Shown piece by piece: positions 30,219-54,064 of a stretch of 64,000 bases of DNA (position 1 is the first letter of the stretch; each line of letters begins with the position of its first letter). Below the pieces are notes generated by a model that saw only the letters and a program-made list of their open reading frames with translations, had not been told where the DNA came from and searched no databases. Origin of the DNA: Thermoproteota archaeon (GTDB lineage: Archaea > Asgardarchaeota > Njordarchaeia > Njordarchaeales > Panguiarchaeaceae). The DNA is taken from the NCBI GenBank assembly GCA_024720975.1, contig JANJXX010000001.1, positions 191,408 to 255,407 on the forward strand. Reading direction: 5' to 3'. The position numbers were made by a program, and so were the translations under genes.

Positions 30219-31310
30219 ATGAAGCACCAATTAAAATTGTTTACAGCGGGACCCGTAGCTTGTTTTCCTGAAGTTTTGCAAGTAATGTCTAGCCAAATGT
30301 TTAGTCATAGAAGCCCAGAATACCAAGAACTTCACTCAGAAACCGTTGAGCTACTCAAAGAATTCCTAGAAACAAAACAAACCGTGCTTCTTGTTCCAAG
30401 CTCAGGCACGGGGCTCATGGAAGCATCAATTCGCAATGCGGTATCACCGAACGGTAAGGTCCTAGTGACAGTTATCGGGGAATTTGGAGAGCGATACGCC
30501 AAAGTTGTAGAATCAAACGGAAGGACAGCTATAAGGCTTAAGTTCGATCTTGGGGACCCTGTTAACGAGGAGAAACTAAAGGAAGCGCTTGATAAATATC
30601 AGGATGTAGAAGCCGTCACAATAACTCATAATGAAACCTCAACCGGCGTTTTAAATGACCTACCTAGACTTGCTCAAATAGTGCATAAATACGGCAAGCT
30701 ATGCTTTGTTGACGCTGTGAGTTCCTGCGGCGGTACGGAGATAAAATTCGACGAGTGGAAAATTGATTTCCTATTTACAAGCTCCCAGAAAGCGCTAGGG
30801 ATTCCACCCGGACTAGCATTCTGCGCTGTGAGTGATAAAGTACTAGAAGTCGCCGAAAAAATACCCAATCGAGGATACTATTTCGATCTGCTACTCTACG
30901 TTAAGGAGCAAAAAGAAAGAAAGAGCACTCCAACAACTCCACCTATTCCCCAAATCATGGGCTTAAACGTTATGTTGAAGAAGATAAAGAGTATGGGCAA
31001 AGAGAATTGGTTTCACATTTATAAAAGAAGGGCAGAAAAAATCAGAAAGGGTGTCTTAGATATGGGCCTTAGACTTCTGGCAAAACCGGGATACGAGAGT
31101 CCAACAATAACTTGCGTTCTAACACCAGAAGGCGTTGGCCCCAAAATTTATGAGAAGATGCGAGATCGTGGATTTGAGCTAGCTGCTGGTTATGGTGAAT
31201 TGAAGAATCGCAGTTTCAGAATAGGACATATGGGATACATACTAGACGAAGACATTGATGCTATGTTAAATACTCTTGAGAGCGTCCTAAGAGAATTGAA
31301 TGTTATATAA
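30219..31310 (+). CDS. Class V PLP aminotransferase (serine-pyruvate/alanine-glyoxylate type)
   Basis: HNETSTG, VDAVSS, SSQKALGIPPG, FRIGHMG. Confidence 0.92.
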   Translation: MKHQLKLFTAGPVACFPEVLQVMSSQMFSHRSPEYQELHSETVELLKEFLETKQTVLLVPSSGTGLMEASIRNAVSPNGKVLVTVIGEFGERYAKVVESNGRTAIRLKFDLGDPVNEEKLKEALDKYQDVEAVTITHNETSTGVLNDLPRLAQIVHKYGKLCFVDAVSSCGGTEIKFDEWKIDFLFTSSQKALGIPPGLAFCAVSDKVLEVAEKIPNRGYYFDLLLYVKEQKERKSTPTTPPIPQIMGLNVMLKKIKSMGKENWFHIYKRRAEKIRKGVLDMGLRLLAKPGYESPTITCVLTPEGVGPKIYEKMRDRGFELAAGYGELKNRSFRIGHMGYILDEDIDAMLNTLESVLRELNVI

Positions 31311-31443
31311 ACACTCTCTACTTGCTCTGAATAGCGACTCCTACTTTTTCTTAATTTCGCTGATCCGAGGAAGTAAAGTACATATCCCTTAAATAGAATA
31401 CACAATCAAGAAAATCCGCTAAAACTTTCTATTAGTATGTCTA

Positions 31444-32529
31444 GTGATTGTTATGGAGCCGATTATTATTGATGGAAGCTATGGAGAAGGAGGCGGTCAG
31501 ATTTTTAGGAGCTCCCTCGCCTACGCTTCTGTTGTACTTAAGCCGGTGAGAATAATAAACATTCGCGCTAAGAGGGATAACCCCGGCCTTCGACCCCAAC
31601 ATCTGACTGTACTCAAGGCTTTAGCTGAAATAACGGATGCTAAAGTGCATGGTGCACAGATAGGGAGCATGAATGTAACATTTGAACCAAGACAAATTAA
31701 AGGTGGTAATCACAGATTCGATGTTGGAACGGCTGGCTCCATCTCGCTCGTACTTCAGGGGATATTACCCGTACTCTTATTTGCTGATAAGGAGTCACAA
31801 GTAGAAATACGTGGGGGTACCGACGTTCCTCTAGCCCCACCAATTGACGCCATTAGATTCGTTCTAAATCAAGGACTTAAATTAATGGGAGCTAACATTG
31901 AGATTGAACTCATTAGACGTGGACACTATCCCCGCGGAGGGGGCCTAGTCCGCGTTTATGTTGATCCAATAGACCACCTAAAACCTATAGTTCTCACAGA
32001 ACAGGGCAAGGTAAATATTATTCGCGGAATAAGTCATTGCGTGAAGCTACCTGATCATGTTGCAAAGAGGCAAGCAGCTGCAGTTGAGAGATTCTTTAAA
32101 GAAAAGAATTATCGCACGGATATAGAACTCGAATACTACAAACCAGATGAAGATCCTCACTTAGGGCCAGGTTCTGGTATCGTTTGCTGGGCAAAAACAA
32201 GCACAAAAGCGCTACTTTCTGGAGACTCTCTGGGTGAAAGGGGAAAACCAGCAGAGGATGTTGGAACAGAGGCTGCTCGTGAGTTATGGGATCAAATAAC
32301 TAAGGGCGGCGCCGTTGATAAACACCACACTGATCAATTAATTATATTCATGGCCCTTGCAAAAGGAGTTTCTATAATTAGAAGCTCCGAAATTTCCCTG
32401 CACACACTGACTGCGATACACGTTGCTAGCAAGATCGTCGGCGCTGAGTTTAAGGTGGAGGGAAATTTGAATACTTCCGGAATCATACAGGCTAGTGGTA
32501 TAGGCTTTACTGGTGGCAAGCTATATTAA
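31444..32529 (+). CDS. rtcA: RNA 3'-terminal phosphate cyclase
   Basis: IDGSYGEGGGQ, PGLRPQH, GGTDV, RGHYPRGGG, DQLI, H..T. Confidence 0.95.
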   Translation: MIVMEPIIIDGSYGEGGGQIFRSSLAYASVVLKPVRIINIRAKRDNPGLRPQHLTVLKALAEITDAKVHGAQIGSMNVTFEPRQIKGGNHRFDVGTAGSISLVLQGILPVLLFADKESQVEIRGGTDVPLAPPIDAIRFVLNQGLKLMGANIEIELIRRGHYPRGGGLVRVYVDPIDHLKPIVLTEQGKVNIIRGISHCVKLPDHVAKRQAAAVERFFKEKNYRTDIELEYYKPDEDPHLGPGSGIVCWAKTSTKALLSGDSLGERGKPAEDVGTEAARELWDQITKGGAVDKHHTDQLIIFMALAKGVSIIRSSEISLHTLTAIHVASKIVGAEFKVEGNLNTSGIIQASGIGFTGGKLY

Positions 32530-32571
32530 AAATGTTTATTTACCTCTATATGACCTTCAGGGGGATTCTAC

Positions 32572-33036
32572 ATGCAAGCAGCCAGTTCAAGATCACAAAA
32601 GACCCGCTTCTACGTACCCTGGATCTTTAAGTACGGCCTGCGACTACACAAGCCCAGATACAGAATAACTAAGGTGTATTTGGGACTCGAGAAAGAATCC
32701 AATCGACTGCTGATCTATGGCCTCTTGATTATTGTTCTTGCTATATTCTTTGGCGGCATATTTATGATTATCTACGAATTTACACCACCGTTAATTGAAA
32801 TCGGTCAAAGACCAGCTCTAATTTACCCTGGACTCTCCCGTGAAACTTTAACTGAGTTTCTATTTATGATCATGATATTCCTGATGGCAGGAATAGGTAC
32901 ATATTTGCTTAGAACCGCAGTTAGAACTGCTGAGGAGGAGTGGAGTACTGTCATATCTATTGGTTTAGTATTGACTCTATTTGCAGTGTTTGGCTTGTGG
33001 GCAATTTTCTCTATGAAGGTCGGCTTATTGAGATAG
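32572..33036 (+). CDS. OSTC/DC2 (OST3/OST6 family) oligosaccharyltransferase subunit-like membrane protein
   Basis: Three TM helices; FFGGIFMIIYEFTPP...QRP...E.L...IFLMAGIG...IG.VL...MK follows the OSTC layout recalled from memory. Confidence 0.7.
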   Translation: MQAASSRSQKTRFYVPWIFKYGLRLHKPRYRITKVYLGLEKESNRLLIYGLLIIVLAIFFGGIFMIIYEFTPPLIEIGQRPALIYPGLSRETLTEFLFMIMIFLMAGIGTYLLRTAVRTAEEEWSTVISIGLVLTLFAVFGLWAIFSMKVGLLR

Positions 33037-33039
33037 TAG

Positions 33040-33888
33040 GTGTTCCTTTTGGAGTACATATACTTTTTCGAAACTGAAGAGCCTCTTATCTTAAAGTTCG
33101 ACTTAGTACCCCTAGACGAACTGCTATTGCATGAAGAGGTTATCGAGGATCATCTTAAAAAACTATCTTGCGCAATTAAGGAAAGTGGTGTTATATCCGA
33201 CCCAGTCATTATTGATGATTACTCCAAGGTTGTTCTAGACGGAACTCACAGAGTTTGCGTACTTAAGGAAATGCATCTAGAATTTGCACCAGTAGTACGC
33301 GTGAATTATGCACACAACGCAATACAACTCAAACGATGGTTCCGTATTTTAGATGGATCTGAAAAGGACATCATCAGCGTTCTAAATAACCTGAACTATG
33401 AGCAAGTTGATCTCCCAAGCATAAACTCGGACCTGCTGGATAGAGAAATTGTGATAGCGAAGAAGAATTCAGCATTTATAATCGAAGCTGGTAAAAATGT
33501 TTTCGAAAAATACTCAGCCCTACGTGAATTTGAAAAGCTGTTACGCAAAAAATGCGTTAGAATTGACTATGTTACTGAAAATGAAGCATTAGAGTCCCTG
33601 TCGCAGGGGAAAATAATAATCATGACGCCGAGAATAGAAAAGCAGGACGTTATCAACTTCGCAAAGAAGAATTTAGTTTTCCCACCAAAGTCAACACGCC
33701 ATGTTTTTAAATTAAGACCCGTGTTTCTCAATTTTCCTCTTAGTTTACTCAAGGAACTTAAAGCTGCGCCAGAAGCCCGCAAAGAAGTTCTAAGGGAGTT
33801 TTTGCTGGAAAGAATACCCCTAGAGATCGAGGGATACCTAACAATAGACAGATTCTATGAGGAGGACTACCTATTGCTGTTTGTTTGA
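33040..33888 (+). CDS. ParB/Srx-fold protein, SerK-like free serine kinase
   Basis: LLLHEE, G.I.DP.I, VLDGTHR, W.R, FPPKSTRH. Confidence 0.7.
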   Translation: MFLLEYIYFFETEEPLILKFDLVPLDELLLHEEVIEDHLKKLSCAIKESGVISDPVIIDDYSKVVLDGTHRVCVLKEMHLEFAPVVRVNYAHNAIQLKRWFRILDGSEKDIISVLNNLNYEQVDLPSINSDLLDREIVIAKKNSAFIIEAGKNVFEKYSALREFEKLLRKKCVRIDYVTENEALESLSQGKIIIMTPRIEKQDVINFAKKNLVFPPKSTRHVFKLRPVFLNFPLSLLKELKAAPEARKEVLREFLLERIPLEIEGYLTIDRFYEEDYLLLFV

Positions 33889-33900
33889 GTTGATTATCGT

Positions 33901-34845
33901 ATGCTGCATGTGATTATATACATTGTTGATGCACTTTCAGTTGATTCAGCATTACAAATAGAAAATGCATTAAAAGAGCTTAAGTCAAACCATCCCTATG
34001 AAATTTTATCGTTTAGAGTAATTCCAGGAAAGGGAGAGATCACAATCCTTGTAAGAGAAAATACACGAGAAGTTATTGACCGCATTAAAAATGAATCAGA
34101 CCGAATCCTGGAGAGGCTTAATCTAAAAATTCAGCAGAGGATATATAGAACTGCTAATTGCCAGTATAATGACACAAAAATTTTGGCTTTAATGTTGATA
34201 CTAGAGGCGTTAATAAACGGCGCTTTGTATAATCCGAGTGAAATAACATCCCGAGGAACTTTCAAACTAATTCGCAGTCTTTTTGAAAAAGATACAAACT
34301 TTCGCATGGCAGCGTTTAAAATTAAGAAGATTGGCCTGTCGAAAGAAGAATTTTTAACTGCTATGACATTATACATGATGGGAAGAAGTGATGTAAGATC
34401 TATCGTTAAACTATGCAGTTGGACACTTAACATTGACTCAGAAGGAGTTATCAAACATCTCAGAAGCTTAGAGTCCCGAGGATTGCTTGAAATTCAAGGC
34501 AAGGATACGGTTTCTCTGCTGCCAGTGTTCAACACAGAAATGGATGAGATTCTATCCATTCTAAAGGACTCATTCAGGAATTTCCACAAGATCGCTGAGG
34601 GAGTAAACTTTGATGAAGTACTCAAAGAAAAGAATGATGAGAGTATATACATTCTAGATCAGGGCTCTATAAAAAAGCTTAGGCTTTCGAAAGTAACTGA
34701 TGCAATTACACTGAACCCCGAGGCCAGTTCACTGAGGGAGGTTCTTCCGCTGATACTTTATCTACTTACTGAAAGTCGAGGCAAGGTCATAAGTAAAAGG
34801 CTTTTTGAAAATATTGTCTCACTCCTTGCAGAGCTAATAAAGTGA
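33901..34845 (+). CDS. Uncharacterised protein with winged-helix and possible C-terminal ATP-cone-like region
   Basis: GLSKEE...L..LESRGLLEI resembles a wHTH; co-directional with neighbours. Confidence 0.45.
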   Translation: MLHVIIYIVDALSVDSALQIENALKELKSNHPYEILSFRVIPGKGEITILVRENTREVIDRIKNESDRILERLNLKIQQRIYRTANCQYNDTKILALMLILEALINGALYNPSEITSRGTFKLIRSLFEKDTNFRMAAFKIKKIGLSKEEFLTAMTLYMMGRSDVRSIVKLCSWTLNIDSEGVIKHLRSLESRGLLEIQGKDTVSLLPVFNTEMDEILSILKDSFRNFHKIAEGVNFDEVLKEKNDESIYILDQGSIKKLRLSKVTDAITLNPEASSLREVLPLILYLLTESRGKVISKRLFENIVSLLAELIK

Positions 34846-34917
34846 ATCTGGTGAGGGATGAGATTATTAATTATTATAAATCCTCATACGTGTCGATCTT
34901 TGTCTTAAGATATTCCG

Positions 34918-36084
34918 GTGAATGAAATGAACTCCCAAAGCACATTAGATAAAACTAGTGCTGATAATGAAGAGCTAGAACAAATCAAAGAGACAATAGA
35001 GATTTCCGCTGACGATCTCTTGAAACAAATAGGAATTAATATGAATGCCTTGACTTCTTTATCAGAAGAAGCAAAAGCTGCTCTCGATGGCAGTCCAGAA
35101 ACTCTACTGCGCTTGCCTCACGATAAAGTCCTTGAAGATCTCAACAAAAAGCTGAAGGAGATCGAAGAGGCATTCGATAAAATAGTATCTGTTAGAAACG
35201 AGATACTATCGAAGCTTAAAGAAGAAAAAAGTAAAAGAGATGAATTTAATGCAAAAGTTAAAGAAATTGTAGCAAAGATCAGAGAACTCAATGAGAAGCG
35301 TAATGAACTCCAGAAATATATCGACGCAAGGAGACAAGAATTAGATGCACAACGACAAACATACCGAGAATTGAGCAACACACTCGAAACACTACAGAAG
35401 AGTCTTGAAGGATTCAGCCTTGGAAAAGAAAGAGCTATAAGGAGCCAAATAAAAAAGTACGAAGGCATACTGGAGAGATTTAATATCCCTCCAGAGCTCG
35501 AGGCAAAATTGACCACAAAGATAGAGGAACTCTCGAGCCAGCTGCAGGGCTTGAAAGAGAAAGAGAAAAAATGGAAAGAACTGAATAAGCTAAAGCGGGA
35601 AAGAGAGAATCTTAGGGATTCCATCGGAACGCTTAGGAGGGCATTAGTCTTATACATCCAAGAACTTAATAAAACAAGAAACGAAATCCGAGAACTTCGC
35701 AAAGAGAGAGATTTCTATAAGTCGAAGGCAGATGAACACCACAAAAATGTTCAAAGACACGCAAAAGAGCTAGAGATTATCAGAGAAATACTCGATAACA
35801 TTAGGGAGATGCGATACACTATATCCAAAACATTAAACAAACTTAGGAAGCTTAAACATCAAATGAAGCAATTCAGAGCCGAAGAAGAGTTTAGAGAGGT
35901 TGTCTTGAAACGGCTGGGTGAGATAAAGTCAAAAATTGAGCACCGCGAGTTAGATCTTCCAGACTTGCAATTTCTCGTGAACTTTGGATTTCTAGCTGAG
36001 GATATATTCGAAACACTGACAGAAACAGCGAGTCCGGAGGAAATAGCAAAACGCGTGGCAAAAGAGCTAGGTTATCAGGTGTAG
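34918..36084 (+). CDS. Archaeal long coiled-coil protein (COG1340-like)
   Basis: E/K/R-rich heptads with KRDEFNAKVKE, KRNEL, ADEHH motifs. Confidence 0.7.
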   Translation: MNEMNSQSTLDKTSADNEELEQIKETIEISADDLLKQIGINMNALTSLSEEAKAALDGSPETLLRLPHDKVLEDLNKKLKEIEEAFDKIVSVRNEILSKLKEEKSKRDEFNAKVKEIVAKIRELNEKRNELQKYIDARRQELDAQRQTYRELSNTLETLQKSLEGFSLGKERAIRSQIKKYEGILERFNIPPELEAKLTTKIEELSSQLQGLKEKEKKWKELNKLKRERENLRDSIGTLRRALVLYIQELNKTRNEIRELRKERDFYKSKADEHHKNVQRHAKELEIIREILDNIREMRYTISKTLNKLRKLKHQMKQFRAEEEFREVVLKRLGEIKSKIEHRELDLPDLQFLVNFGFLAEDIFETLTETASPEEIAKRVAKELGYQV

Positions 36085-36099
36085 CAACTTACGTTGTTT

Positions 36100-36837
36100 T
36101 TATCTTAATTTGAGAGATTTCCTTAGCATTCTGATAGTCTCTAATTTTGACTTTCTAGGTGTTATTTTAAGTGCATTCTCCATGATGTGCTTTACTAGTG
36201 TGAGTAGTCTAGGTATCAACTCGCTATAATTCCTATCATTTATTTCGAAATATACCTCCATCTGGGGAGCAAAATAATCAATTATAAGGTATGCTAAAAA
36301 CCTCTTGAGATTAGCTAGCTCGTAGATAATAAACGAATTTATTAATTTTTGCACAGCAAGAATGTTATCAGTTAATATAAGATAATCTTTATCTAGGTCT
36401 GCAATCCTCACGACTTCTAAACCCTCAGATAGTGTCAATATTTTTTCCAGAAGCTTGCGTCTTCTCTTTGGTACAATTATTAGGGAACATCCGGGCGATT
36501 CCTGCGTTACCAGTTCAACAAGTATGCCATCATTTACCCCTCCGAAGAGTCTAGCAAAGTAATAGCCATAAAACCTACGATCAAACAAAAATGTTTTCCC
36601 TGAGACAGCTAATTGGTTTTTCCCTTCGAAAACCGCTTCAAGAGGATTTTTTATCGAGTATTCTAAGTTAAAACCGAACAATCGCAAGAAGACGAGCTTA
36701 AGTGCACGTTCGTATTTCCTGTGGGTTCTCTGGAGATTCTTCGCACCTCTCCACCAAGCAAGAAAGAACGGTAGTAAGAGTATTAGCGGTGGGATCGATA
36801 GTGCAAGTAAACTTATAATCAGATCTACTATTTGCAT
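36100..36837 (-). CDS. CCDC47 (PAT complex subunit, DUF1682)-like membrane-anchored protein
   Basis: N-terminal TM then RGAKN; colinear segments resembling CCDC47 (see findings). Confidence 0.6.
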   Translation of the reverse strand: MQIVDLIISLLALSIPPLILLLPFFLAWWRGAKNLQRTHRKYERALKLVFLRLFGFNLEYSIKNPLEAVFEGKNQLAVSGKTFLFDRRFYGYYFARLFGGVNDGILVELVTQESPGCSLIIVPKRRRKLLEKILTLSEGLEVVRIADLDKDYLILTDNILAVQKLINSFIIYELANLKRFLAYLIIDYFAPQMEVYFEINDRNYSELIPRLLTLVKHIMENALKITPRKSKLETIRMLRKSLKLR

Positions 36838-36982
36838 ATCATCCCACCTTAACGGACACGGTTAATCTTTCTATAACACAAATTTTGTTCACAAAGACAA
36901 TACTAGTAGATCAATTTTTAGGTTCTCTCGTAGTGGAAAACTGGTCAATTGCTAATTACTACGAAATCGCGATTTCTGATGG

Positions 36983-37525
36983 CTATTGAAGCCCAAAGAC
37001 ATTACTAGCTAGGAACTCATAGAGTTGTGTCCAGCATTCCTCTAAGTTAGAGCCGCTAATGAGCTTATCGAGACTCTTTAGTTTCGATTCCTTTATTTTT
37101 TCCGGCTCTTTGTCTAGTGCAACAAATACAGCTAAGGCGCCCGGGAATAAGTTTTTAAGAACTCGGGAAGCATTTTCTGCATTCATTATGAGTGCCTGCT
37201 TGAAATGAAATTCTGCATATATGAAGCAGACAGGTTTTGGATTCGGTTGAGCCTTTCTATATAATATTATCGCTGGCATTTCTGAAGCGCGTCTTATTTC
37301 ACCGCGGTTGAGCTCTAGATCTAGTGTATCCAATAGAGGCTCTATTGCTGCCTTTAGTAACTTGCCACGATCAACATCAAAACGTTCATCAAGTTCCTGA
37401 TATTTCTTTAGAAAATCCCGTTTGATTAATTGCACGAGGTCTTTCTCGAAATCATTTTTCGTATATTCAACATGCTTGGATTTTTTCTTTGAAACCTTTA
37501 TCACCGGAGCAAACACTAAATGCAT
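36983..37525 (-). CDS. Hypothetical protein (possibly inactive PD-(D/E)XK fold)
   Basis: Unopposed 180-aa ORF; weak MPAIILY...FIYAEF pattern. Confidence 0.5.
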   Translation of the reverse strand: MHLVFAPVIKVSKKKSKHVEYTKNDFEKDLVQLIKRDFLKKYQELDERFDVDRGKLLKAAIEPLLDTLDLELNRGEIRRASEMPAIILYRKAQPNPKPVCFIYAEFHFKQALIMNAENASRVLKNLFPGALAVFVALDKEPEKIKESKLKSLDKLISGSNLEECWTQLYEFLASNVFGLQ

Positions 37526-37643
37526 AGATGTGTATAAATGCTTTTTAATTGTGTATCTTAAGATGAGCTAACTTAACTAAGCAAATATTAAAAATTTTAC
37601 TCCTAAAGTCATAAGAATACGACTATTTCATGACTCACTGGGG

Positions 37644-38876
37644 ATGAACTTGTGGTTGATTTCGACAATAGTAGGCCCTGTAATTCTTGATGACAATGGA
37701 AACGTGATCTCATATAAAATCTACGGTAAGGAAAAACCATCCTTATCGGAGGTCATCGAAGGAATAAAGAAGCTAGAAAAAAAGGAATGTCCTTCAGAAT
37801 TTGAGACACTCATTAAAGAGCAAAACATAGATAGAATAAAAACCGATAGTGAAATCATAGCCGAAATCCTGAAGGGCACTTTTTCCAAGTTGAAGATAGA
37901 AGTTGTGTACGACGGCCCTGAACTTACTGAAGTTCGAAATGGTGTGCACAAATTCCTGGAGAGGTTATTTGGAACTTACGAGAAATACGTTGAATTCGCT
38001 AACGCTACTTTAGTTGAAATAACTCGCGATAAGCTACGCGAAGTAGGCGAAGAACCAGATAAGATGATTATCCAAGCAATAACAATGATTGAGGAACTCA
38101 CTGAAGCAACAAATGCACTAATGGCACATTTAAGAGAATGGTTTGGGATAGTGTTTCCAGAGCTTGGAAAAATTATTGACGATCACCGAAAATTCGCAAC
38201 TATAGTTTACGAAATAGGAAACCCGAGTAGGTTATCTGCTGAGTCAAAAGACAGAGAGGAATATGTCAAAAAACTCGAACAGATACTAGGAAATAAGAAG
38301 ACCGTTGACAGAATTTTGGAAGCCTTAGAAACATCAGCTCCAGTCAAAATAACGGACAAGGACGAGAAAGAGTTACGCTCAGTTGCAAAGTTAGTTCTAG
38401 ATATGTTCAACTTGAGAGACGATCTCGAGACTTACTTGCAAGAACTCATGGAGGATACATGTCCAAACTTGACTAAGTTAGCCGGACCAACTATAGGCGC
38501 TAAGCTTATAAGAAAAACCGGTGGACTCCGACAATTAGCACTTAAGCCTGCTAGTACAATCCAAGTCCTGGGAGCCGAAAAGGCCCTTTTCAGGGCTCTA
38601 CGTGGTAAGGGGACACCCCCAAAACATGGGATACTTTTCACACATCCATTTGTTTTCAGAGCCCCTTGGTGGCAGAGGGGAAAAATTGCCAGAACATTAG
38701 CATCTAAGCTAGCTATTGCTGCAAGAGTCGACTACTTCTCGAAAGAATACATTGGAGATGAACTTTGGAATGAATTACTTCAAAGGGTAGAGGAGATAAA
38801 AAAGAAGTACGCTAAACCACCCCCTGAAAAAATGAAAAGGCCAAAGCCGCGTTTGAGGGAAAAGAAAAGAAAGTAA
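37644..38876 (+). CDS. nop5: C/D box RNP protein Nop5 (Nop56/58)
   Basis: REWFG..FPEL, PASTIQVLGAEKALF, PKHG, RGKIAR.LA.KLAIAARVD. Confidence 0.96.
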   Translation: MNLWLISTIVGPVILDDNGNVISYKIYGKEKPSLSEVIEGIKKLEKKECPSEFETLIKEQNIDRIKTDSEIIAEILKGTFSKLKIEVVYDGPELTEVRNGVHKFLERLFGTYEKYVEFANATLVEITRDKLREVGEEPDKMIIQAITMIEELTEATNALMAHLREWFGIVFPELGKIIDDHRKFATIVYEIGNPSRLSAESKDREEYVKKLEQILGNKKTVDRILEALETSAPVKITDKDEKELRSVAKLVLDMFNLRDDLETYLQELMEDTCPNLTKLAGPTIGAKLIRKTGGLRQLALKPASTIQVLGAEKALFRALRGKGTPPKHGILFTHPFVFRAPWWQRGKIARTLASKLAIAARVDYFSKEYIGDELWNELLQRVEEIKKKYAKPPPEKMKRPKPRLREKKRK

Positions 38877-38979
38877 ACCCCTCTTATCCTTGTATGAAAA
38901 AATTAATCTGAGATTGAGTTTATATTTATTGGTTTTCTGTTATCTCATTTTCGAATTGTACATTGAGATCATCTGTTGA

Positions 38980-40410
38980 GTGGTAGAGATGCCTAGTACC
39001 TTCGTAGAGCTAGTGAGACCATTTGCAAGACTGGTTCCTATAGTAAAGAAGCCTGAGCGAAGCCCAAGTTTCAAACTGAGATTCCTTTACACCGTACTCG
39101 GTGTTCTGATATACCTGCTACTGATGAGTATACCTATCTGGGGAATTGATGTCTCTCAGGGTTACGATATATTCTGGTCCTTAAGAGTTATTTTAGCTTC
39201 ATCAAGAGGAACTCTAGCGGAACTCGGGATAGGCCCCATAGTAACAGGAGGCCTGATACTTGAAATTCTTGCAGGATCTAAGATGATAAATATCGATCTG
39301 TCAGATCCACAGGACCGACGTGCATTCAACGAAGCTATGAGGGGAATGGCTGTAATCATGATCCTGTTTGAAAGCTTAGTCTATATCTCGGGAGGAGCAT
39401 ACGGTTACCTACCTGCAAGTAAGGCATTTGCTGTATTCATGCAATTAGTTTTAGCTAGTGCATTAATACTTATGCTTGATGAAACATTGAGACACTACGG
39501 CATCGGCTCAGGAATATCGCTGTTCATTCTTGCAGGCGTCGCCCAACAAATCTTTTGGGCATTATTCTGGCCCTACGCGGCATCTGATGGACTTCCAATA
39601 GGATTTATTTCAGCTTTAGTGACAGTATTATATGGAAGTGGAAGGATCGAGGAACTACTACTAAGATGGAATAGTCCTGATCTTATAGGCCTAGTCGTTA
39701 CTATCTTCATTTTCATGCTTATTGTATATTTGGAGAATGTTCGTATTGATATACCAGTGGAACATGTACGATTAAAATACAGAGTAACCTATCCAATAAA
39801 ACTCATGTACAGTAGCAATATTCCCGTAATCTTAACCGGTGCCCTTTTCGCTAACATAATGCTATTTTCACAAATCCTCTGGTCACGATTCCCTGGTAAT
39901 TTCTTTGTCGGCTTATTGGGATCGTGGACAGTGCAAGAAACATCACAAGGAGGCAGACCCGTTCCAGTGGGTGGATTAGCACGGTTTACCGTCGCACCCC
40001 AGAGCCTTTTAGCAAGCCTGCATGAACCAGTTCGTGCACTTGGATACACACTCATTATGATACTCTCATGTTGGATGTTTGCTGTCATGTGGGTGGATGT
40101 AGCTGGTCTGGATCCCAAGAATATTGCCAGGCAGCTTTTATCATCTGAGCTTAAAATACCAGGTATAAGAGCGAACATCAACGAAATAGCTGACTACATA
40201 CGTCCTTATATATACACCTCAGCATCCCTCTCCGGCGTCTTAATTGGTCTAATTGCAGCTATTGCAGATTGTCTAGGTGCGTTCGCGACAGGTCCTGGAC
40301 TACTATTGGCTACAAGCATATCGATAGGTATATACCAAGAGATTGCGAGAAGATATCTAGAGGAAGTTCCCGGCGCCTTTAGAAAGTTCCTGTTCGGTCG
40401 AGGCTTTTAG
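38980..40410 (+). CDS. secY: Protein translocase SecY/Sec61-alpha
   Basis: GTLAELGIGPIVT, GIGSGISLFI, YPIKLMYSSNIPVIL, multiple TMs. Confidence 0.96.
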   Translation: MVEMPSTFVELVRPFARLVPIVKKPERSPSFKLRFLYTVLGVLIYLLLMSIPIWGIDVSQGYDIFWSLRVILASSRGTLAELGIGPIVTGGLILEILAGSKMINIDLSDPQDRRAFNEAMRGMAVIMILFESLVYISGGAYGYLPASKAFAVFMQLVLASALILMLDETLRHYGIGSGISLFILAGVAQQIFWALFWPYAASDGLPIGFISALVTVLYGSGRIEELLLRWNSPDLIGLVVTIFIFMLIVYLENVRIDIPVEHVRLKYRVTYPIKLMYSSNIPVILTGALFANIMLFSQILWSRFPGNFFVGLLGSWTVQETSQGGRPVPVGGLARFTVAPQSLLASLHEPVRALGYTLIMILSCWMFAVMWVDVAGLDPKNIARQLLSSELKIPGIRANINEIADYIRPYIYTSASLSGVLIGLIAAIADCLGAFATGPGLLLATSISIGIYQEIARRYLEEVPGAFRKFLFGRGF

Positions 40411-40495
40411 TGATTCTTATTACTAGATCATACACTCCCGTAATCACACCCTTTAAAAAATTTTAGAAGGTTCTTAGGTAAGAGAAGGGTCCAAG

Positions 40496-41416
40496 ATGGT
40501 CAGGGTTCTCATCACGGACAGCGTCTCCAATAGACTGATTGATATACTAAGGTCTGCGGGAATTGGCGTTGACTACTATCCCGATATAGATCCCACGGAG
40601 CTTAGAAGAATCGTAGGTTCATATGAAGCACTTACTGTTAGGTCTCGCACTAGGGTCACGAAAGATATCATCGAAGCTGGAAAGAATTTACGTGTAATCG
40701 CTAGGGTAGGCGTAGGACTGGATAACATTGACGTCGAATACGCCACAAAAAAAGGAATCACTGTAATAAATGCCGGGGAAGCAACAGCAGAAAGTGTTGC
40801 TGAACTCACTATGGGTCTAATACTGGCCATCATAAGGAAGATACATCATGGGTACGTAAAGCTGAGAGAAAAAAGCTGGGCTAAAAACGAGTGTTTTGGA
40901 ATGGAATTACATGGAAAAACACTGGGCATTATTGGAGCTGGTAACATAGGAACAGCACTTGGTAAAATTGCATATTATGGCTTCGGAATGCGCGTTCTTG
41001 GTTATAGAAGGAGGTTAGAACTAGTGCAACCACCGCTTATCCCCACCCCACTTGATGAGTTGTTATCCAACTCCGACATTATCAGCATACATTTGCCGTT
41101 AAATAACGAAACTGAGAGATTCTTCGGGCGTGAATTATTCTCAAAATTGAGAAGAGGAGCATATGTTATAAATACATCTAGAATGGGTGTTATAGATCTC
41201 GATGCTTTAATAGAGGCGTTAGAAAGCAAGTTAATTGGAGGATTCGCTGCTGACACTGATTTGAAGCCCACTGATGACCCACGAATATCGAAGCTTCTAT
41301 CATTCGAGAACGTACTGTTAACACCGCACATAGGTGCTCAAACTGGGGAGGCTCAAGATAGAGCCGCCGAATACATCGCTCGCAAATTGATCGAACTACT
41401 AGGGAGAACACAATAA
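40496..41416 (+). CDS. serA: D-3-phosphoglycerate dehydrogenase-like D-2-hydroxyacid dehydrogenase
   Basis: VRSRT, GVGLDNID, GIIGAGNIG, INTSR, TPHIGAQT. Confidence 0.75.
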   Translation: MVRVLITDSVSNRLIDILRSAGIGVDYYPDIDPTELRRIVGSYEALTVRSRTRVTKDIIEAGKNLRVIARVGVGLDNIDVEYATKKGITVINAGEATAESVAELTMGLILAIIRKIHHGYVKLREKSWAKNECFGMELHGKTLGIIGAGNIGTALGKIAYYGFGMRVLGYRRRLELVQPPLIPTPLDELLSNSDIISIHLPLNNETERFFGRELFSKLRRGAYVINTSRMGVIDLDALIEALESKLIGGFAADTDLKPTDDPRISKLLSFENVLLTPHIGAQTGEAQDRAAEYIARKLIELLGRTQ

Positions 41417-42255: not shown

Positions 42256-43770
42256 TTGCTTAAGTCAAAGGATGTTTATCGTTTGGATATAAATTCACGT
42301 TGGTTAGGAGTTAATACAGAACTCCTCATGGAAAATGCGGGAAAGAGTGTAGCTGACGTTATTTTTGAAAAATATCCAACTGCAAAGAAAATCGTGTGCA
42401 TCTGTTCTCGAACCAATAATGGGGGGGATGGCTTAGTAGCGGCAAGGCATTTAAGCGCGAGATACGATGTTATAGTTATCTTTATAGGCGATCCGGAAAC
42501 TATTAAGACAGCTGAGACAAGAAAAAACTGGCAAAGAGTGTATAATCTACATACTGTAAAGAAAGTTATAATTAAGTACCCAGAAGATCTAAAAATCCTA
42601 GAAGATATTATAAAAGACGCTGACATCATAATCGATGCTATATTTGGCGTTGGTGTTAAGGGCAAACCAAAAGGCTTGGAAGGTGAAACCATAGCCAAAA
42701 TAAATGCTCTGAAGGAGAAGTATGGATTCAAAATCATAAGTGTTGACGTTCCCAGTGGATTCGATACCGAGGAGGGTAAACCCTCCGAATTAATGATTAA
42801 TGCCGATGTTATAACTACATTTCATGCCATGAAGCATGGCCTTGAAAAACTGGGAAGAGAAGTTATAATTAAGCATATTGGTATTCCAAAAGACTCTGAA
42901 ATCTTTGTAGGACCGGGTGACTTTATAGAATTCATTAGAGAAAGGGATCCCTGGTCGCATAAAGGCGATTTCGGACGCATACTAGTTATTGGAGGCTCCG
43001 AACACTACACAGGAGCACCTGCACTTTCTGCCATGGCAGCTTTAAGAACAGGTGCAGATCTGTCTATAATATACGCCCCAGAAGCCGTGGCATCAACCAT
43101 CCGCTCTTTCTCACCTAACGTTATTGCCGAGTCTTATCCGGGAAAATTCTTCAATGAGGATTCCATGAAAAGAGCGTTAGAACTTTCCGAAAAAGCCTCA
43201 GTAGTAATAGTTGGTCCTGGACTTGGCTCAGAATCTGAGACTCTCAAAACTACATACAAATTTATTACTGAGCTCGCAGGTAAGAAGCCATTAGTTGTTG
43301 ATGCTGATGCTCTTAAATCGCTGGCAATATATGGCATCCCAAGAAGCAGAGACATCATAATAACCCCCCACGCGGGAGAGTTCAAATTAATATTCGGCGA
43401 AGAACCTTCAAAAGATTTATACATGCGAGGCGAACTCGTTAAGAAGCATGCAAAGGCGCTGGATAATGTAACCATACTTCTCAAAGGGCATATTGATGTA
43501 ATAAGCGATGGAGATCGACTGCTGTTCAATAGAACTGGAAATCCGGGAATGACTGTTGGTGGTACAGGTGACGTTTTAACGGGCATTGTAGCCGCTATAC
43601 GAGCGCAGTGTTCTGACTCGTTCAAGAGTGCGGCTATGGGTGCCTTCTTATGCGGCTTTGCCGGTGACTTAGCATTTGAAAAATACGGATACTGTCTAAC
43701 TGCAACTGATGTGATAGAGCAAATACCAGTTGCAATTAGAGAAATCAGGAGGATAATTTATCAGGAATAA
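42256..43770 (+). CDS. nnr: Bifunctional NAD(P)H-hydrate epimerase/dehydratase
   Basis: LMENAG, NNGGDG, DVPSG, HKGDFG, GPGLG, VDADAL, TPHAGEF, GGTGDVL. Confidence 0.95.
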   Translation: MLKSKDVYRLDINSRWLGVNTELLMENAGKSVADVIFEKYPTAKKIVCICSRTNNGGDGLVAARHLSARYDVIVIFIGDPETIKTAETRKNWQRVYNLHTVKKVIIKYPEDLKILEDIIKDADIIIDAIFGVGVKGKPKGLEGETIAKINALKEKYGFKIISVDVPSGFDTEEGKPSELMINADVITTFHAMKHGLEKLGREVIIKHIGIPKDSEIFVGPGDFIEFIRERDPWSHKGDFGRILVIGGSEHYTGAPALSAMAALRTGADLSIIYAPEAVASTIRSFSPNVIAESYPGKFFNEDSMKRALELSEKASVVIVGPGLGSESETLKTTYKFITELAGKKPLVVDADALKSLAIYGIPRSRDIIITPHAGEFKLIFGEEPSKDLYMRGELVKKHAKALDNVTILLKGHIDVISDGDRLLFNRTGNPGMTVGGTGDVLTGIVAAIRAQCSDSFKSAAMGAFLCGFAGDLAFEKYGYCLTATDVIEQIPVAIREIRRIIYQE

Positions 43771-43957: not shown

Positions 43958-44653
43958 TTAGGGCTTCCATCTACCAATGAACATTATATGATCTTTAGCG
44001 TATGGGTCAAGGCGTATTTCCTCTTCTATCCTGAAACCGTTTGACTCGAGAATCTTCTTTTGTTCCTCAAATATTTTTTCGGGAGGACGCGCTACATCTA
44101 TACTTCTAGCTTTTATAGCAATAAAGCCATAGCCGTTGGTTCTAACAAACATTCTACAGTTTCTTATGAATATCTCGCTTTGATCTGGTTGTGCTATATC
44201 AGCATAAATACCATCGACGGATTCTCCTATAATATAGGCATACTCGTATGGTTTTCTAGCATCCTTAAGTAGGGGAATGATGTTTTTTCTCTTCTGAGCC
44301 ACAGCAACAAGGTCCCGCATTGGCCTTGGAGCAAATTCGATACCATATATTATCCCTTTTGGACCTATGATATCTGAGATATGTGATGACGTCGTTCCTG
44401 ATGCTATACCTAAATAGAGTATCCTGTCTCCCTCGGATATTCTAATGTCCTTCAAACCATTGATTATTGCTGCAGCCAGCTTGGATCTATAAGGTACCCA
44501 CTCTCGATACTCAACTCCTTGAAAGTTCATTAGTCTCTCTCCATAAACGCTAACGCCAGCTACGAGATTCCTAGTGGCTAATCTCTCTGTTCCCAGTTCA
44601 TCAGTTACAACAAAAACTCCCTTGAATATCTCCTTTACACTTACTATTTTCAT
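43958..44653 (-). CDS. flpA: Fibrillarin-like rRNA/tRNA 2'-O-methyltransferase
   Basis: VYGE, YREW.PYRSKLAAA, LYLGIASGTT.SH.SD, DIAQPDQ, KARSID; start moved to ATG 44653 (MKIVSV). Confidence 0.96.
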   Translation of the reverse strand: MKIVSVKEIFKGVFVVTDELGTERLATRNLVAGVSVYGERLMNFQGVEYREWVPYRSKLAAAIINGLKDIRISEGDRILYLGIASGTTSSHISDIIGPKGIIYGIEFAPRPMRDLVAVAQKRKNIIPLLKDARKPYEYAYIIGESVDGIYADIAQPDQSEIFIRNCRMFVRTNGYGFIAIKARSIDVARPPEKIFEEQKKILESNGFRIEEEIRLDPYAKDHIMFIGRWKP

Positions 44654-44715
44654 TTCAAGACACCATCTAAAGTATATCACCGACAATGCAATTATTAATA
44701 GAGAACAAACTTGAG

Positions 44716-45186
44716 TCAAACACTAAAATATCTCTCAATAGCGCCTCTGGTCCAGTTCTTTATTGCCAATCGTCCCTCTGCCAGAATACTTCCGATATTC
44801 TCGAGCTTTTGGATGATTGCTGTAATGATGCTAGGATTTGCACTTGGATCGCTATGAAGTATAAAAAGCGTCATGTCATAACCGCTCTCAGGTTCATCTG
44901 CTACGAAACGATATTTGGCCGAAAGCTGCCGTACAATTTCAGCTGCTAGTGCCCTGTTGATGGGATCTTCCCCAATCGCTATAAGTTTTATGTTGATTTG
45001 CATGGAATTCTTCGTTACTTTAACCACACCATCTTCGTACTCTAGTTCTCTGTATCCAGCTTTGTCGCATTCAAGGCAAAATAAACATGCTAGGTCAACC
45101 TTTTTGGGACAATCAGAGACCTTTCTAAGGGATCTAATTAAACTTAATATGTTCGGCAAATCTTCTGTTATTCGCACAATATACAC
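44716..45186 (-). CDS. ARPC4 (Arp2/3 complex 20-kDa subunit)-like protein
   Basis: NSMQINI...DPINRAL...PESGYDMTLFI...LENI...RLAIKNWTR follows ARPC4 NSVRVSI...DEIEKIL...PVEGYDISFLI...MEEI...KLSVNARAR (recalled). Confidence 0.7.
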   Translation of the reverse strand: MYIVRITEDLPNILSLIRSLRKVSDCPKKVDLACLFCLECDKAGYRELEYEDGVVKVTKNSMQINIKLIAIGEDPINRALAAEIVRQLSAKYRFVADEPESGYDMTLFILHSDPSANPSIITAIIQKLENIGSILAEGRLAIKNWTRGAIERYFSV

Positions 45187-46463: not shown

Positions 46464-49400
46464 TTACATCATTTCTGACGTTTTTAGTTGAACCTTAATA
46501 CCAAGGCTTTGGAGTTCTCTGATTAATAGAACAAATGCATATGGAACTGTGATGCGAGCAAGTGAGCTGGTTTTTTCTTTGCAGAACGGGCAGATCCAGC
46601 GTTTGAGTCGCGGGTCATAGTGCGCTATTGCACCGTGTTCTTCGCAAACGAAAATTTCAATTCCATCACTAGAGTCAACAAAGCGTTCGCGCAAGAATAG
46701 ACTCAATCCGTGGCCTACTAGAGCATCTTTTTCCATTTCTCCCAGTCTAAGGCCACCTCCATGTGCCCTTCCCCCTGGTGGTTGCAATGTAAGAAGCGTA
46801 TATTTCCCTGAAGATCTTACGTGGATCTTGTCTCGAGCTAGATGTTTGAGTCTCTGATAATACATTGGACCAACTAATATGTGTGCCTTATACATCCTTC
46901 CTGTTTTACCATCGTACAGCGTTTTCTCACCATAATAATTCAACCCTAGCTCTTTCGCCTTCTTTATCAGGTATTCCATCCAATTTTCAGATTCGAATGT
47001 AGTCCCGTCAACCGGGTGTCCAAGCTTACATGCTATGCTTCCAGCGAGAGCTTCGAGTATGAATCCAACTGTCATCCTGCTTGGAATTCCGTGCGGGTTG
47101 AATATTATGTCTGGGATTATTCCATCTTCAGTAAATGGCATGTCCTCTTGCGGAATTATCAAGCTTACTACGCCTTTTTGTCCACTGCGACTGGCGAATT
47201 TATCTCCTAACTCTACCGGTCTTGGTTGCCTTAGTTTTACGTAAACTTTGATTCCTTTTTGTCCAAGTTCACCTAATGATGATATAACTATTGAATCTAT
47301 GTATCCTGCTTCTCCAGGTCTAACTTTCTCTGACGTTTCCTCTTTAACTCGAAAAGCTCTCAGAGAGGCACCCTTTATTGGTGTCAGTCTTCCTACGATC
47401 TCCTCCCCTTCTTGCACGGATAAGCCTTCCCAAGTCAAGCCATCTTCCGCTAGAGTTTCTAACTTTCCTTTGATAATATCCCTCTGCTCTACTGGTAGCT
47501 TTATTTCGTCTTTTGCTCCTCCTGTGTGCGTTCTTTCAAGAACTTCGTAGATTCTTATTAGTGCTCCATTAAATAGGCCACGCTCTATTGCCGCTTTGTT
47601 TATTATTATCGCATCCTCTATATTAAACCCTTCGTATGAGAGGACGGCTACTATGGCGTTCTGTCCAAAGCCTCTTTCTGATATGCCCAGGAATTCTAGA
47701 GGTCGGGTAGTAACTATTGGCCGTTGAGGATAATACATTAGGTAAGTTGAAGTTTCTGGCCGGATCCTATAATTAAGTCTGGGTATAGTTAAAGCCTGTT
47801 TCGCCATTGAGGTCTCATGTATTATTTTCGGTGCCTGGTTTGTATCTGCAAATGGTATCAGGTTAGGTATGAGATCCAAGGTGGCCGCGGGTGCTATCTC
47901 CAAGTGCGTATGGGCGGGCGAGAGATCCTTTTCCCAGATAGCTATGTATGCGTCTTCCTCTTCCTCTGCATCAAGCATTTCTATTATTCCATTTTTTATG
48001 AGATCAGTGAACTTCATTTCCCCTTCGAGTAGTTTCTTTGCATGCGCCTTTGTGAGCTTAGGTTTGCCATTTTCAACTATTATCAGTGGTCTTAATATTC
48101 TGCCAGAGTCCGCATTTATGTGGACCTCATTCCATTCTTCCCAGTATTTTATGTTAGCTTCCCAAGGCACTATACCTTTCCTCCTATATTCTCTGAACCT
48201 TCTTACGAAATCTTTGGGATTCCTACAAACTCCTACTATCACACCATCTATAAACACCGGTGTGAGGCCTACCGGGAACCAGCCAGTTTTTATTTCTACT
48301 GCTTCAAGTCCTATCTTGGGGAGTATTTCTTTGATCAGTTGTTCTCGTTCTTGCTTCCTAAGACCAACACTTACATATGCCGAAAGAGCTAATTGTTTCG
48401 TTAAACCACACATGGTACCTTCAGATGTTGTAGTTATGCATATGCGTCCCCATTGGGTTGGATGTAAGTCTCGAGCTTCTGGTTTACCGTGTTTTGCTTG
48501 AACTCTCGAGATAAGTATATTTTTGACACGCCTTAGATGACTTATCATCTCTATTTGGTTAAGTTGTCCGAATGTTTCAGTAACTCCGGTCACCCTCGTG
48601 GGCCATGTTCCAGTGGCGAGTGATCTATTAACAACCTCTGAGATTTTCTCGGTCTTCAGGATGTCTTTGTGAGAAAATCTTCCTGCTTCAAAATCCGCTG
48701 CTCTTGTTGCAAGAGCTGTTCTTGAAGCCCTTATGAATTCTCTCCAGGCAAAACTAAAGAGTTCTCGAAGAAAGTCTCCTACCATTTTAAGGCGCTTGTT
48801 TTTATAGTGATCTCTATCATCCGCTTGCGCGTAGCCTAGATAAACCATCGCTGCGCGCCTAACTATGCGCGCTAGATAGTATGCTTTGAGGTAATATGAA
48901 TCCTCAGATGTTCCTAGATGTGAGAGGAAGTATCTATTCAAAACGTCCTTTACAAGTGCTATCTTTTGTGCATCGGTTGCGACTCGTATTAGTCTACTCA
49001 AGCCTACTCTTTGAATGTACTTGAAAAGTTCTTTCAGCGCTTCTTCCTGGGATTTAAGAGCTTCCGTAGGCGCCATTTTGATGTTAAGGAACAGTAATTG
49101 AACGATATCGTGATATTTGCCTTCACTAAAATATTCTGGAACCACCAGCCTTATGAAATCCCCTATAGTCAGTCCCAGAGCTCTAACGAGAACCATGAGT
49201 GGTACATATTTATTCAGTGATACTTGCGGGAACCTCACAACCACTTGCATGTCTTTTCGAGAGATGTATACACTTACTCTGTTTCTATATATACCTGGCG
49301 TTGTTATCCAAGCTGATACTTTGAACTTGCTTGAAACTGCGGATGTTCCCTTGAGTTCTTCAACAATGATTCTGCCTCTAACGGTCTCTTCTCTCGGTAA

Positions 49401-53035: not shown

Positions 53036-53560
53036 CTATTCGGATACCGGTTCTACATCTTCAGGTTTAACTTCTATTATCAGAGTAGCACCAACCATCA
53101 GGTCTAGGAATAACTTCGTCTTTGAGACGCTAACTATTCTTGCAGTCCTATCTTTAAAGGGACCATGTATAATACGTACTATTTGCCCTACCTTGAATTC
53201 TATTTCTTTCTTTTCTTCAACCTCCCTAGAGTGTTTAATCGCATCTTCGATCGATCTTCTCAGCTCATCAAATTCGAGCGCATCAAGGGGAGTCTCGAAA
53301 GCACGTGCATAGCGGAAGTACGCTATAGCTTGAGCTACAGCGCTGTAATCATCAGCTTCAACATATATCAAGTCTGGATGTTTGTCGATGATAATTGCCG
53401 AGTAAATTGGCAAGTTAAGGATTTGCGCCCTTTGTTTTATGAGGATTAGTGCGTCTATTGCCCGATTTTTAGGAACACTAACTATAAATATTGGTTTTCT
53501 ATCTCTTTCCGGACTCCCTGATGCCTCCGTAAATTTCTTCACTTCATTCTCTTTGTCCAT
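53036..53560 (-). CDS. spt5: Transcription elongation factor Spt5/NusG
   Basis: NGN-like IYSAII...IYVEA plus KOW motif GQIVRIIHGPFK. Confidence 0.85.
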   Translation of the reverse strand: MDKENEVKKFTEASGSPERDRKPIFIVSVPKNRAIDALILIKQRAQILNLPIYSAIIIDKHPDLIYVEADDYSAVAQAIAYFRYARAFETPLDALEFDELRRSIEDAIKHSREVEEKKEIEFKVGQIVRIIHGPFKDRTARIVSVSKTKLFLDLMVGATLIIEVKPEDVEPVSE

Positions 53561-53563
53561 GCA

Positions 53564-53776
53564 CTATCCGCCTGGTCTTATTATCGTTTGTGTGATTATT
53601 CTTACTCCGAAACCAAGAAGACCTAGCATAACTATCAGTATGAGTACTATCTTGAGTACTAAGAAGAACTCTCGTGTGGAGGGTTTTGTTGATAGTTTAG
53701 TTAATTTCCAGGCTCCCATAAAGAAGCCTTCAAGTCTTGCACCTAAACTCTTCTTGTTTGACACAACTACCACCAA
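53564..53776 (-). CDS. secE: SecE/Sec61-gamma
   Basis: KPSTREF followed by one TM with G..GF; directly upstream of spt5. Confidence 0.88.
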   Translation of the reverse strand: MVVVVSNKKSLGARLEGFFMGAWKLTKLSTKPSTREFFLVLKIVLILIVMLGLLGFGVRIITQTIIRPGG

Positions 53777-54064
53777 TATCTATGCTACTATAATCCTATG
53801 TTCAGACTACTTATTCAAAGGAAAGGATTCTGCTAATAAGATGGTTTACTAGTTTTTTGAGTTTTAATTGCAAGTGATATAATGCTCAATTGGATAGTCC
53901 TATGCGGTTACTTCTTGTTCCTTCAAAGAATTATTCACTATTCGCTTGATGCTGTCTCACTATTAACATCAGCTGATCTTGTTACCAGGATTTTAACTAT
54001 CTGCATTATAATCAGTCAAATCAATTGTCTATTTAGTGCCTTAGAATTTTTTGGTGCTTTAAAA

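Follow-up and report, generated by a model that had tools for sequence, protein, structure and literature searches.

Do genes for eukaryote-like translocon accessory proteins lie close to secY in an archaeal genome because their products work together? The question arises from an 8-kb part of the window, the stretch of 64,000 nucleotides analysed here, which belongs to a metagenome-assembled genome (MAG) of the Njord order of Asgard archaea. Here an open reading frame (ORF) of 154 amino acids (aa) resembling OSTC/DC2 (32572..33036, + strand), an ORF of 245 aa resembling CCDC47 (36100..36837, − strand) and secY (38980..40410, + strand) are near neighbours. The translocon of the eukaryotic endoplasmic reticulum (ER) is a Sec61 core with accessory complexes, whose origins have been partly traced. 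In mammals, DC2/OSTC docks oligosaccharyltransferase (OST) complex OST-A onto Sec61 (titles of PDB entries 6S7O and 8B6L), and CCDC47 (calumin) is a subunit of the PAT complex and of the multipass translocon and a ribosome-docking scaffold. A sequence-only reading of this DNA had suggested that the loose clustering could reflect such a coupling. Our analysis favors a different answer, to which we give a probability of about 0.65: the three are real membrane-biogenesis genes that became neighbours through recent rearrangement and do not form a module.

Homology of the three gene products

By its profile matches, the gene at 38980..40410 encodes a clear homolog of SecY/Sec61-alpha with a Sec61-type plug (PF00344, 3.2e-59, 201.2 bits; plug PF10559, 1.5e-07, 31.5 bits).

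The 154-aa ORF has hydrophobic stretches at residues 42–75, 91–117 and 123–154, consistent with three transmembrane (TM) helices, and 10 lysines and arginines in residues 1–41. On the Pfam family OST3_OST6 (PF04756) it scored 13.7 bits (E = 0.041) over profile positions 179–288, the C-terminal TM part, and there was no thioredoxin match among its Pfam and other profile matches. Its close homologs are a small family, one of them listed by NCBI as Candidatus Njordarchaeota. Homologs of OST1, OST3, OST5, WBP1 and TRAP have been published for Asgard archaea, in which, as in TACK archaea, a short family is labelled as the eukaryotic signature protein ‘OST3/OST6’ (Eme et al. 2023, PMC10307638; Carilo et al. 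2024, PMC11417166). We found PF04756 matches in 184 of 201 Asgard genomes. Because nearly all of them are 140–200-aa frames covering profile positions ~165–290 only, the published Asgard ‘OST3/OST6’ is a short protein without a thioredoxin domain. At E ≤ 0.001 PF04756 was detected neither in genome G000, whose gene order is that of the window, nor in any of the four other genomes of the same genus.

A hidden Markov model (HMM) of the Njord OSTC-like family (A2) matched 27 PF04756-positive short Asgard proteins at 20–44 bits and no other ORF in those loci. When aligned, the Njord copy is 20–26% identical to the other Asgard members and has motifs in common with them (P-W-I-F ... K-P; G-x-I-Y ... 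P-P; E-G/E-F). A joint profile of the Asgard and Njord families (A8), searched against the PDB, matched human OSTC/DC2 with E = 8e-17 and 64 bits over residues 12–144 of 149 (6s7o_H; also 8B6L, 8PN9 and 9N9J), whereas MAGT1, a true Ost3/6-type subunit, was matched with only E = 0.023 and 17 bits. ESM Atlas linked the ORF to short archaeal clusters by features (0.92) and to eukaryotic OST3/6 with a template-modelling score (TM-score) of 0.64. An AlphaFold2 model from a shallow alignment was poor (predicted local distance difference test, pLDDT, 64) with its helices present, and Foldseek ranked OSTC chains first for it, at a non-significant E-value (0.58).

These matches support placing the 154-aa ORF in the OST3/OST6–OSTC family, much closer to OSTC/DC2 than to MAGT1, and mark it as a divergent Njord ortholog of the short Asgard ‘OST3/OST6’ protein. 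Like OSTC/DC2, a subunit of the mammalian OST-A (STT3A) complex, it is ~150 aa long and crosses the membrane with three TM helices after a cytoplasmic N-tail; both proteins carry a P-P motif and a conserved acidic/Gly motif in an extracytoplasmic loop, and both lack a lumenal thioredoxin domain. It differs from OSTC/DC2 in that the Njord copy is divergent, there is no ER, the partner would be AglB in the cell membrane, and the gene is not beside aglB. With the Asgard and TACK ‘OST3/OST6’ proteins it shares family membership, length and the lack of a thioredoxin domain, but the copies of its own genus fall under Pfam detection. Judged by size, topology and sequence, the Asgard/TACK protein is itself OSTC/DC2-like; given 64 bits for OSTC against 17 for MAGT1, this suggests that the OST subunit in question may originally have had an OSTC-type architecture. 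We found no statement in the searchable literature that the family is closer to OSTC than to Ost3/6. The presence of OST3/6 in Asgard archaea is already published, and the ORF is a further member of that known family.

The 245-aa ORF was linked to CCDC47 through its relatives. An exhaustive HMMER search with its four closest homologs as query found only 14 representative proteins. In one-by-one scans against PF07946 (formerly DUF1682; gathering cut-off 27.7 bits), collinear matches were obtained for 5 of 15 relatives and then for 10 of 23 in a wider Asgard set, with three above the cut-off (P0028, 28.2 bits; L043, 31.8 bits; L050, 31.2 bits). The matches run over positions ~8–270 and stop near 256–271 of 326. 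In a tree of prokaryotic family members, P0028 and other representatives fall inside the Njord-order clade together with the window protein (support 100/99). Comparison by hhalign of an order-only profile (A6) with the PF07946-positive Asgard proteins (A7) gave a probability of 100% and E = 1.7e-51. Searched against 177,635 PDB sequences, the A7 profile had two CCDC47 chains as its top matches (7tm3_4 and 6w6l_7, E = 0.002), in an alignment that lays the TM end, a G-K-N-type motif and a D-R-R/K-R-Q block onto human residues 141–282. Narrower queries of the PDB (A1, A2, A3, A4, P0005 and P0028) returned nothing relevant; only the wider A8 and A7 profiles gave OSTC and CCDC47.

In a comparison of structures, the ESM Atlas model of the window protein (predicted TM-score, pTM, 0.72) matched a eukaryotic CCDC47 cluster with a TM-score of 0.74 over 220 residues, both sides being predictions. 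The same model also matched Heimdall, Chloroflexota and Thermoproteota clusters and, more weakly (0.55–0.60), bacterial DUF3137/TtfA. Our AlphaFold2 model, from a shallow alignment, was poor (pLDDT 46), and its Foldseek search against the PDB returned noise only.

The sole hydrophobic stretch of the 245-aa ORF spans residues 1–29 and is followed by a segment rich in lysine and arginine. From the positive-inside rule we infer an N-out TM anchor and a cytoplasmic domain. CCDC47 (PDB 7TM3 chain 4, 6W6L chain 7) likewise has a single TM helix, a G-K-N-type motif at once after it and a cytoplasmic alpha/beta domain. Unlike CCDC47, the archaeal protein has 245 rather than 483 aa and no signal peptide, no ER surrounds it, and the acidic lumenal domain is absent (the TM helix starts at residue 1–3, leaving no extracytoplasmic segment). 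The long C-terminal coiled coil and the latch helices are also lacking; in eukaryotes this region contacts the ribosome and Sec61. The protein ends ~40 residues past its globular domain in two short helices of the model, a basic tail with 9 lysines and arginines in the last 25 residues.

On these profile and model matches, we read the 245-aa ORF as a remote, true but minimal homolog of the CCDC47 core. A family profile detected the gene in every one of the order's 14 genomes and, across the phylum, in 34 of the 201 Asgard genomes. We found no paper in the searchable literature linking CCDC47 or DUF1682 to Asgard archaea, and the protein represents a new, reduced form of a known family, in a lineage for which that literature does not report CCDC47. 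Both labels given by the sequence-only reading were therefore upheld, OSTC/DC2-like by the A2 and A8 profiles and by topology, and CCDC47-like (DUF1682) by profile tests through relatives (P0028, A6/A7, 7tm3_4), direct Pfam comparison failing for the latter and staying under the cut-off for the former.

The block most conserved in the CCDC47-like family lies at residues ~84–103 of the window protein (L-x-D-R-R-x-Y-x-Y-Y ... D). A recurrent weak match of the D-R-R-x-Y-x-Y-Y region to the eukaryotic ribosomal protein eL22 (E 0.05–0.07) was set aside as probably due to chance. A complex prediction for SecY (A5) and the CCDC47-like protein (A3), run without controls, scored 0.00 and speaks neither for nor against binding.

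Gene order among relatives

As the sequence-only reading had noted, the three genes are not one operon: they lie on different strands and are interleaved with SerK-like, helix-turn-helix (HTH), nop5 and unknown genes. The distances it gave were also correct, with the CCDC47-like ORF ending 2.1 kb and the OSTC-like ORF 5.9 kb before secY, and secE following 13.2 kb after it. Of the 14 genomes of the order, G000 and G021 are the only two in which no more than 10 kb separates secY from the CCDC47-like gene. The three genes are on different contigs or 69 kb apart (G100) in the sister family f3, and in f3 and f4 the OSTC-like gene is on other contigs. The sequence-only reading had itself named a lack of linkage in relatives as a refutation of its interpretation. 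The linkage was absent outside the genus and the gene order rearranged within it, and the suggestion that the loose clustering reflects function was not borne out.

The relocation of secY itself, in turn, could be confirmed for this genus. The archaeal spc operon has the arrangement uL30-uL15-secY-adk. Orthologs of secY were found in 11 of the 14 genomes, and the sister family f3 keeps uL15 directly before secY (order NUDIX, uL15, secY, proteasome alpha, beta). The window gene is orthologous to the spc-operon secY and encodes the same Sec61-type plug, but it is preceded by nop5 (37644..38876, +; PF01798, 3.3e-62) and followed by a 2-hydroxyacid dehydrogenase gene (HADH; 40496..41416, +; PF02826/PF00389). 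Ribosomal genes are absent from its flanks, and the uL15 homolog of the source genome is on another contig (C27). The adjacency of nop5 and secY is also present in G042.

Gene order varies even among congeners. G021 has fibrillarin, secY, RtcA (−), HADH and the OSTC-like gene, then a coiled-coil gene, an aminotransferase gene (−) and the CCDC47-like gene. In G042 the segment from RtcA to the CCDC47-like gene is inverted, and nop5-secY is on another contig. HADH stands beside the OSTC-like gene in 9 of 13 loci of the order, namely in f3 and in three of five genomes of the window's own genus (not in G000 or G042); the adjacency thus occurs in both larger families of the order, and HADH is the ancestral neighbour of the OSTC-like gene. 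A SerK-like gene adjoins the OSTC-like gene in most genomes of the order; here it is at 33040..33888 (+), starting 3 nt past the OSTC-like stop, and encodes a SerK/SbnI-like protein of the ParB fold (NCBIfam SerK, 81.5 bits, under the equivalog cut-off).

The one conserved arrangement that we found around the CCDC47-like gene involves a gene for a 388-aa coiled-coil protein (34918..36084, +; generic coiled-coil matches only). This gene is convergent with and adjacent to the CCDC47-like gene in 9 of the 10 genomes of the order with enough flank, the two stop codons lying 11–25 nt apart across the order (15 nt in the window). The pair is kept despite protein identities of 25–38%, and all other neighbours differ. 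Eukaryotic CCDC47 has a long coiled coil of its own; the archaeal protein is without one but has this conserved coiled-coil gene as its neighbour.

In a simulation of uniform random placement, three of eight translocon-related genes fell within 7.8 kb with P ~0.005, or 0.09 when 20 candidates were allowed, and the test was post hoc. Because of this, and because the linkage is not kept in relatives, the strands are mixed and unrelated genes lie between, we read the proximity as a by-product of rearrangement. We conclude that it looks like a genus-specific outcome of gene shuffling, not a functional cluster.

If so, the history and the roles of the three genes may be sketched as follows. In the stem of the genus, a block of HADH, OSTC-like and SerK-like genes would have been joined, together with secY, to an older block of RtcA, coiled-coil and CCDC47-like genes, and the order would later have been re-inverted among congeners. 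The gene secY, encoding a Sec61-alpha-type channel, was moved in this genus from uL15 to behind nop5. The OSTC-like protein is predicted by homology to be a membrane accessory subunit of the AglB/STT3 oligosaccharyltransferase, which we consider somewhat more likely than not. More tentatively, and going by homology, the CCDC47-like protein might be a membrane-anchored cytoplasmic scaffold at or near ribosome–SecYEG sites, possibly working with the adjacent coiled-coil protein.

Alternative explanations

Two further sets of data bear on how the locus is to be read. The CCDC47-like family has members in other contexts, and the A3 profile matches prokaryotic proteins in the neighbourhood of CstA and ArsA at 33–49 bits. 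In locus L045 (G046) the CCDC47-like gene stands beside a CstA transporter gene, two ArsA/Get3-type ATPase genes and an unknown gene, their Pfam families being confirmed for this locus only; the gene sizes recur in L046, L047 and L051, all four loci belonging to other Asgard families, with the unknown gene at 205–221 aa. In G156 (L042) it adjoins a gene for a Ras-family GTPase. The CstA/ArsA-linked proteins share size, topology and detectable homology with the Njord members, which have neither CstA nor ArsA nearby but the convergent coiled-coil gene instead. In the tree, a long and fully supported branch parts the Njord clade from the clade with the CstA-context members.

The second set concerns other translocon and OST components of the source genome, a MAG of 1.36 Mb that is 81% complete. 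On contig C19 (96650–99144; loci L082 and L109), a 210-aa ORF with a Pfam TRAP_beta match of 23.8 bits (cut-off 22.4) begins 26 nt downstream of aglB/STT3 (700 aa). Sec61-beta is on the same contig C19; the window's own contig carries an EMC3/TMCO1-family (YidC-like) gene at a distance of ~100 kb from the window. In family searches of this incomplete genome, no significant match was obtained for ribophorin I, Asterix, TRAP-alpha or Ost5, which does not imply absence since they are divergent in Asgard archaea. Asterix, the partner of CCDC47, had no match to PF03669 at E ≤ 1; it is small and could be too divergent. The components that the sequence-only reading had proposed to search for were recovered in part, with EMC3/TMCO1-family and TRAP-beta-like genes present and Asterix and ribophorin I not detected. 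A second, weaker TRAP-beta-like match (E = 0.006) lies at C11:257865–258200, 2.5 kb past the end of the window.

Could the similarities be spurious, produced by hydrophobic or low-complexity sequence in two unrelated, lineage-specific membrane proteins? TM proteins do draw weak matches, direct Pfam scores were under the cut-off or absent, and our own model of the CCDC47-like protein found nothing in the PDB. Yet the OSTC match reaches 64 bits over nearly the whole chain, loop motifs included, and the CCDC47 matches fall for the most part within the soluble domain, run collinearly in many members, exceed the cut-off in three and agree with an independent structural match. The A6/A7 hhalign result and the A8–OSTC and A7–CCDC47 matches largely refute this explanation, which we regard as highly improbable. 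A less drastic alternative puts the 245-aa protein in a broad prokaryotic family whose members are anchored in the membrane. The family would be related to the CCDC47 core only by descent and fold, and the protein would have a job unrelated to SecY. It could be a tether or receptor together with the adjacent coiled-coil protein, or elsewhere an accessory of CstA transporter or ArsA-Get3 ATPase modules. The bacterial, Thermoproteota and DUF3137/TtfA clusters among the ESM Atlas neighbours fit such a family, as do the relatives beside CstA and two ArsA-type ATPases (L045) or a Ras-family GTPase, the coiled-coil gene as the only conserved neighbour in the Njord order, the detection of the family in no more than 34 of the 201 Asgard genomes, and the failure to find Asterix. 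Convergent neighbours are not co-transcribed, however, the branch between the Njord and CstA-context clades is long and well supported, and the top PDB match and the only recurrent Pfam match are CCDC47 itself; the N-out TM helix, G-K-N-type motif and basic C-terminal helix fit a ribosome-facing scaffold. We consider this alternative less likely than not, though with genuine support from the CstA/ArsA and Ras-GTPase contexts.

The remaining possibility is functional proximity: an ER-like ribosome–translocon supercomplex in which AglB is docked on SecY by the OSTC-like protein and a multipass-type translocon has the CCDC47-like protein as its scaffold, with selection holding the genes close together. 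In its favor, both accessory homologies are real, and the Asgard family is OSTC-like, OSTC being the subunit by which mammalian OST-A is docked onto Sec61. The genome holds a TRAP-beta-like gene beside aglB, Sec61-beta and an EMC3/TMCO1-family gene. The cluster has a nominal P of ~0.005, and secY and the OSTC-like block have each been relocated to the side of the CCDC47-like gene, both in one lineage. But the linkage is absent in the sister families and variable within the genus, and the strands are mixed, with RtcA, SerK-like, HTH, nop5 and unknown genes interleaved. The gene aglB is on another contig, and the OSTC-like gene adjoins it in only 1 of 43 Asgard loci examined (L063, G014:C119; divergent, ~380 nt apart). 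Neither Asterix nor ribophorin I was found in the 81%-complete genome, and the CCDC47-like protein is without the coiled coil and latch through which its eukaryotic counterpart contacts the ribosome and Sec61. We therefore consider this reading decidedly unlikely.

Several points weigh against our preferred explanation, that real membrane-biogenesis genes became neighbours by recent rearrangement. The placement of the genes is nominally improbable (P ~0.005), the arrival of secY as well as the OSTC-like block beside the CCDC47-like gene within a single lineage could hint at selection, and calls of ‘different contig’ could hide moderate distances, given the fragmented genomes of the relatives and the incompleteness of the MAG. 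As to the homologies, direct scans of the two ORFs with Pfam and NCBIfam gave no match above a cut-off. The OSTC-like ORF is under the PF04756 gathering cut-off (27 bits), also in a six-frame search of its own genome. The CCDC47-like ORF has no direct PF07946 match even at E ≤ 10, nor one in the search of its own genome. Its link to CCDC47 is transitive or structural, the best direct PDB E-value being only 0.002, and the evidence of fold rests on ESM Atlas models because our own AlphaFold models were poor. The only functional datum on archaeal members of either family is the localisation of MK-D1 OST3/6 to the ER in HeLa cells (PMC11417166).

The gene proximity in the window should not be counted as evidence that OST or CCDC47 is coupled to SecY. 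The homologies themselves bear on the age of the eukaryotic machinery. With a minimal CCDC47 core present in Asgard archaea, the Njord group among them, it becomes testable whether the multipass machinery is partly older than the ER, and an Asgard ‘OST3/6’ that is nearer to OSTC/DC2 is relevant to the question whether the channel was ancestrally a site of co-translational glycosylation. One may imagine an Asgard proto-ER translocon, in which an OSTC-type subunit docks AglB on SecYE-beta for co-translational N-glycosylation and the ribosome–SecY junction is occupied by a minimal CCDC47 core, with the coiled-coil protein perhaps as its extension, and a TMCO1/EMC3-type insertase. We think such an arrangement unlikely; if it were true, both the scaffold of the multipass translocon and the way in which OST-A docks would be older than eukaryotes, and OSTC, not Ost3/6, would be the ancestral form of the subunit.

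The surrounding sequence

The DNA around the three genes is unremarkable. Base composition is even across 29–56 kb of the window (~40% G+C), this part holds ordinary housekeeping genes, and window DNA was detected in hot-spring metagenomes of several studies, with no RNA dataset among the sequencing runs listed as containing it. A single 13.4-kb Logan contig, from the probable source sample, spans 31000–41364 without joints. Among contigs of independent studies, support extends to just two junctions, RtcA/OSTC-like and nop5/secY, and none of these contigs bridges 36928–38207, between the CCDC47-like gene and nop5. The contiguity of the stretch is thus supported by the source-sample contig and only piecewise by independent samples.

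The gene order begins with deoxyhypusine synthase, an aminotransferase and RtcA, an RNA 3'-phosphate cyclase (31444..32529, +; PF01137, 1.5e-83) whose gene ends 42 nt before the OSTC-like gene, both being part of a co-directional run. The 154-aa ORF, the SerK/SbnI-like, HTH and 388-aa coiled-coil genes, the 245-aa ORF (−) and an unknown 180-aa gene (−) follow, and then nop5, secY, HADH, aIF2-beta, Nnr (bifunctional NAD(P)HX epimerase/dehydratase; 42256–43770) and fibrillarin (43958–44719, −). Further on are rpoB, encoding RNA polymerase subunit B as a single 1199-aa gene (46464–50063, −), an Lhr helicase gene, spt5/nusG (Spt5-NGN/KOW; 53036–53560) and secE. The last (Sec61-gamma; 53564–53776, −; PF00584, 24.9 bits, cut-off 22.7) is in its usual place directly upstream of spt5/nusG. 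Just past it, at 53882–55129 (+), is an actin-family gene with an ALP_N and an MreB-like C-terminal domain.

The distance between Nnr and the CCDC47-like gene is 0–2 kb in three distant Asgard genomes (L042, L043 and L044) and 5.4 kb in the window. In most archaea nop5 and fibrillarin are typically adjacent, as they are in the relative G100 (L038); here they are split by 5 kb, with secY, HADH, aIF2-beta and Nnr between them, and fibrillarin is inverted.

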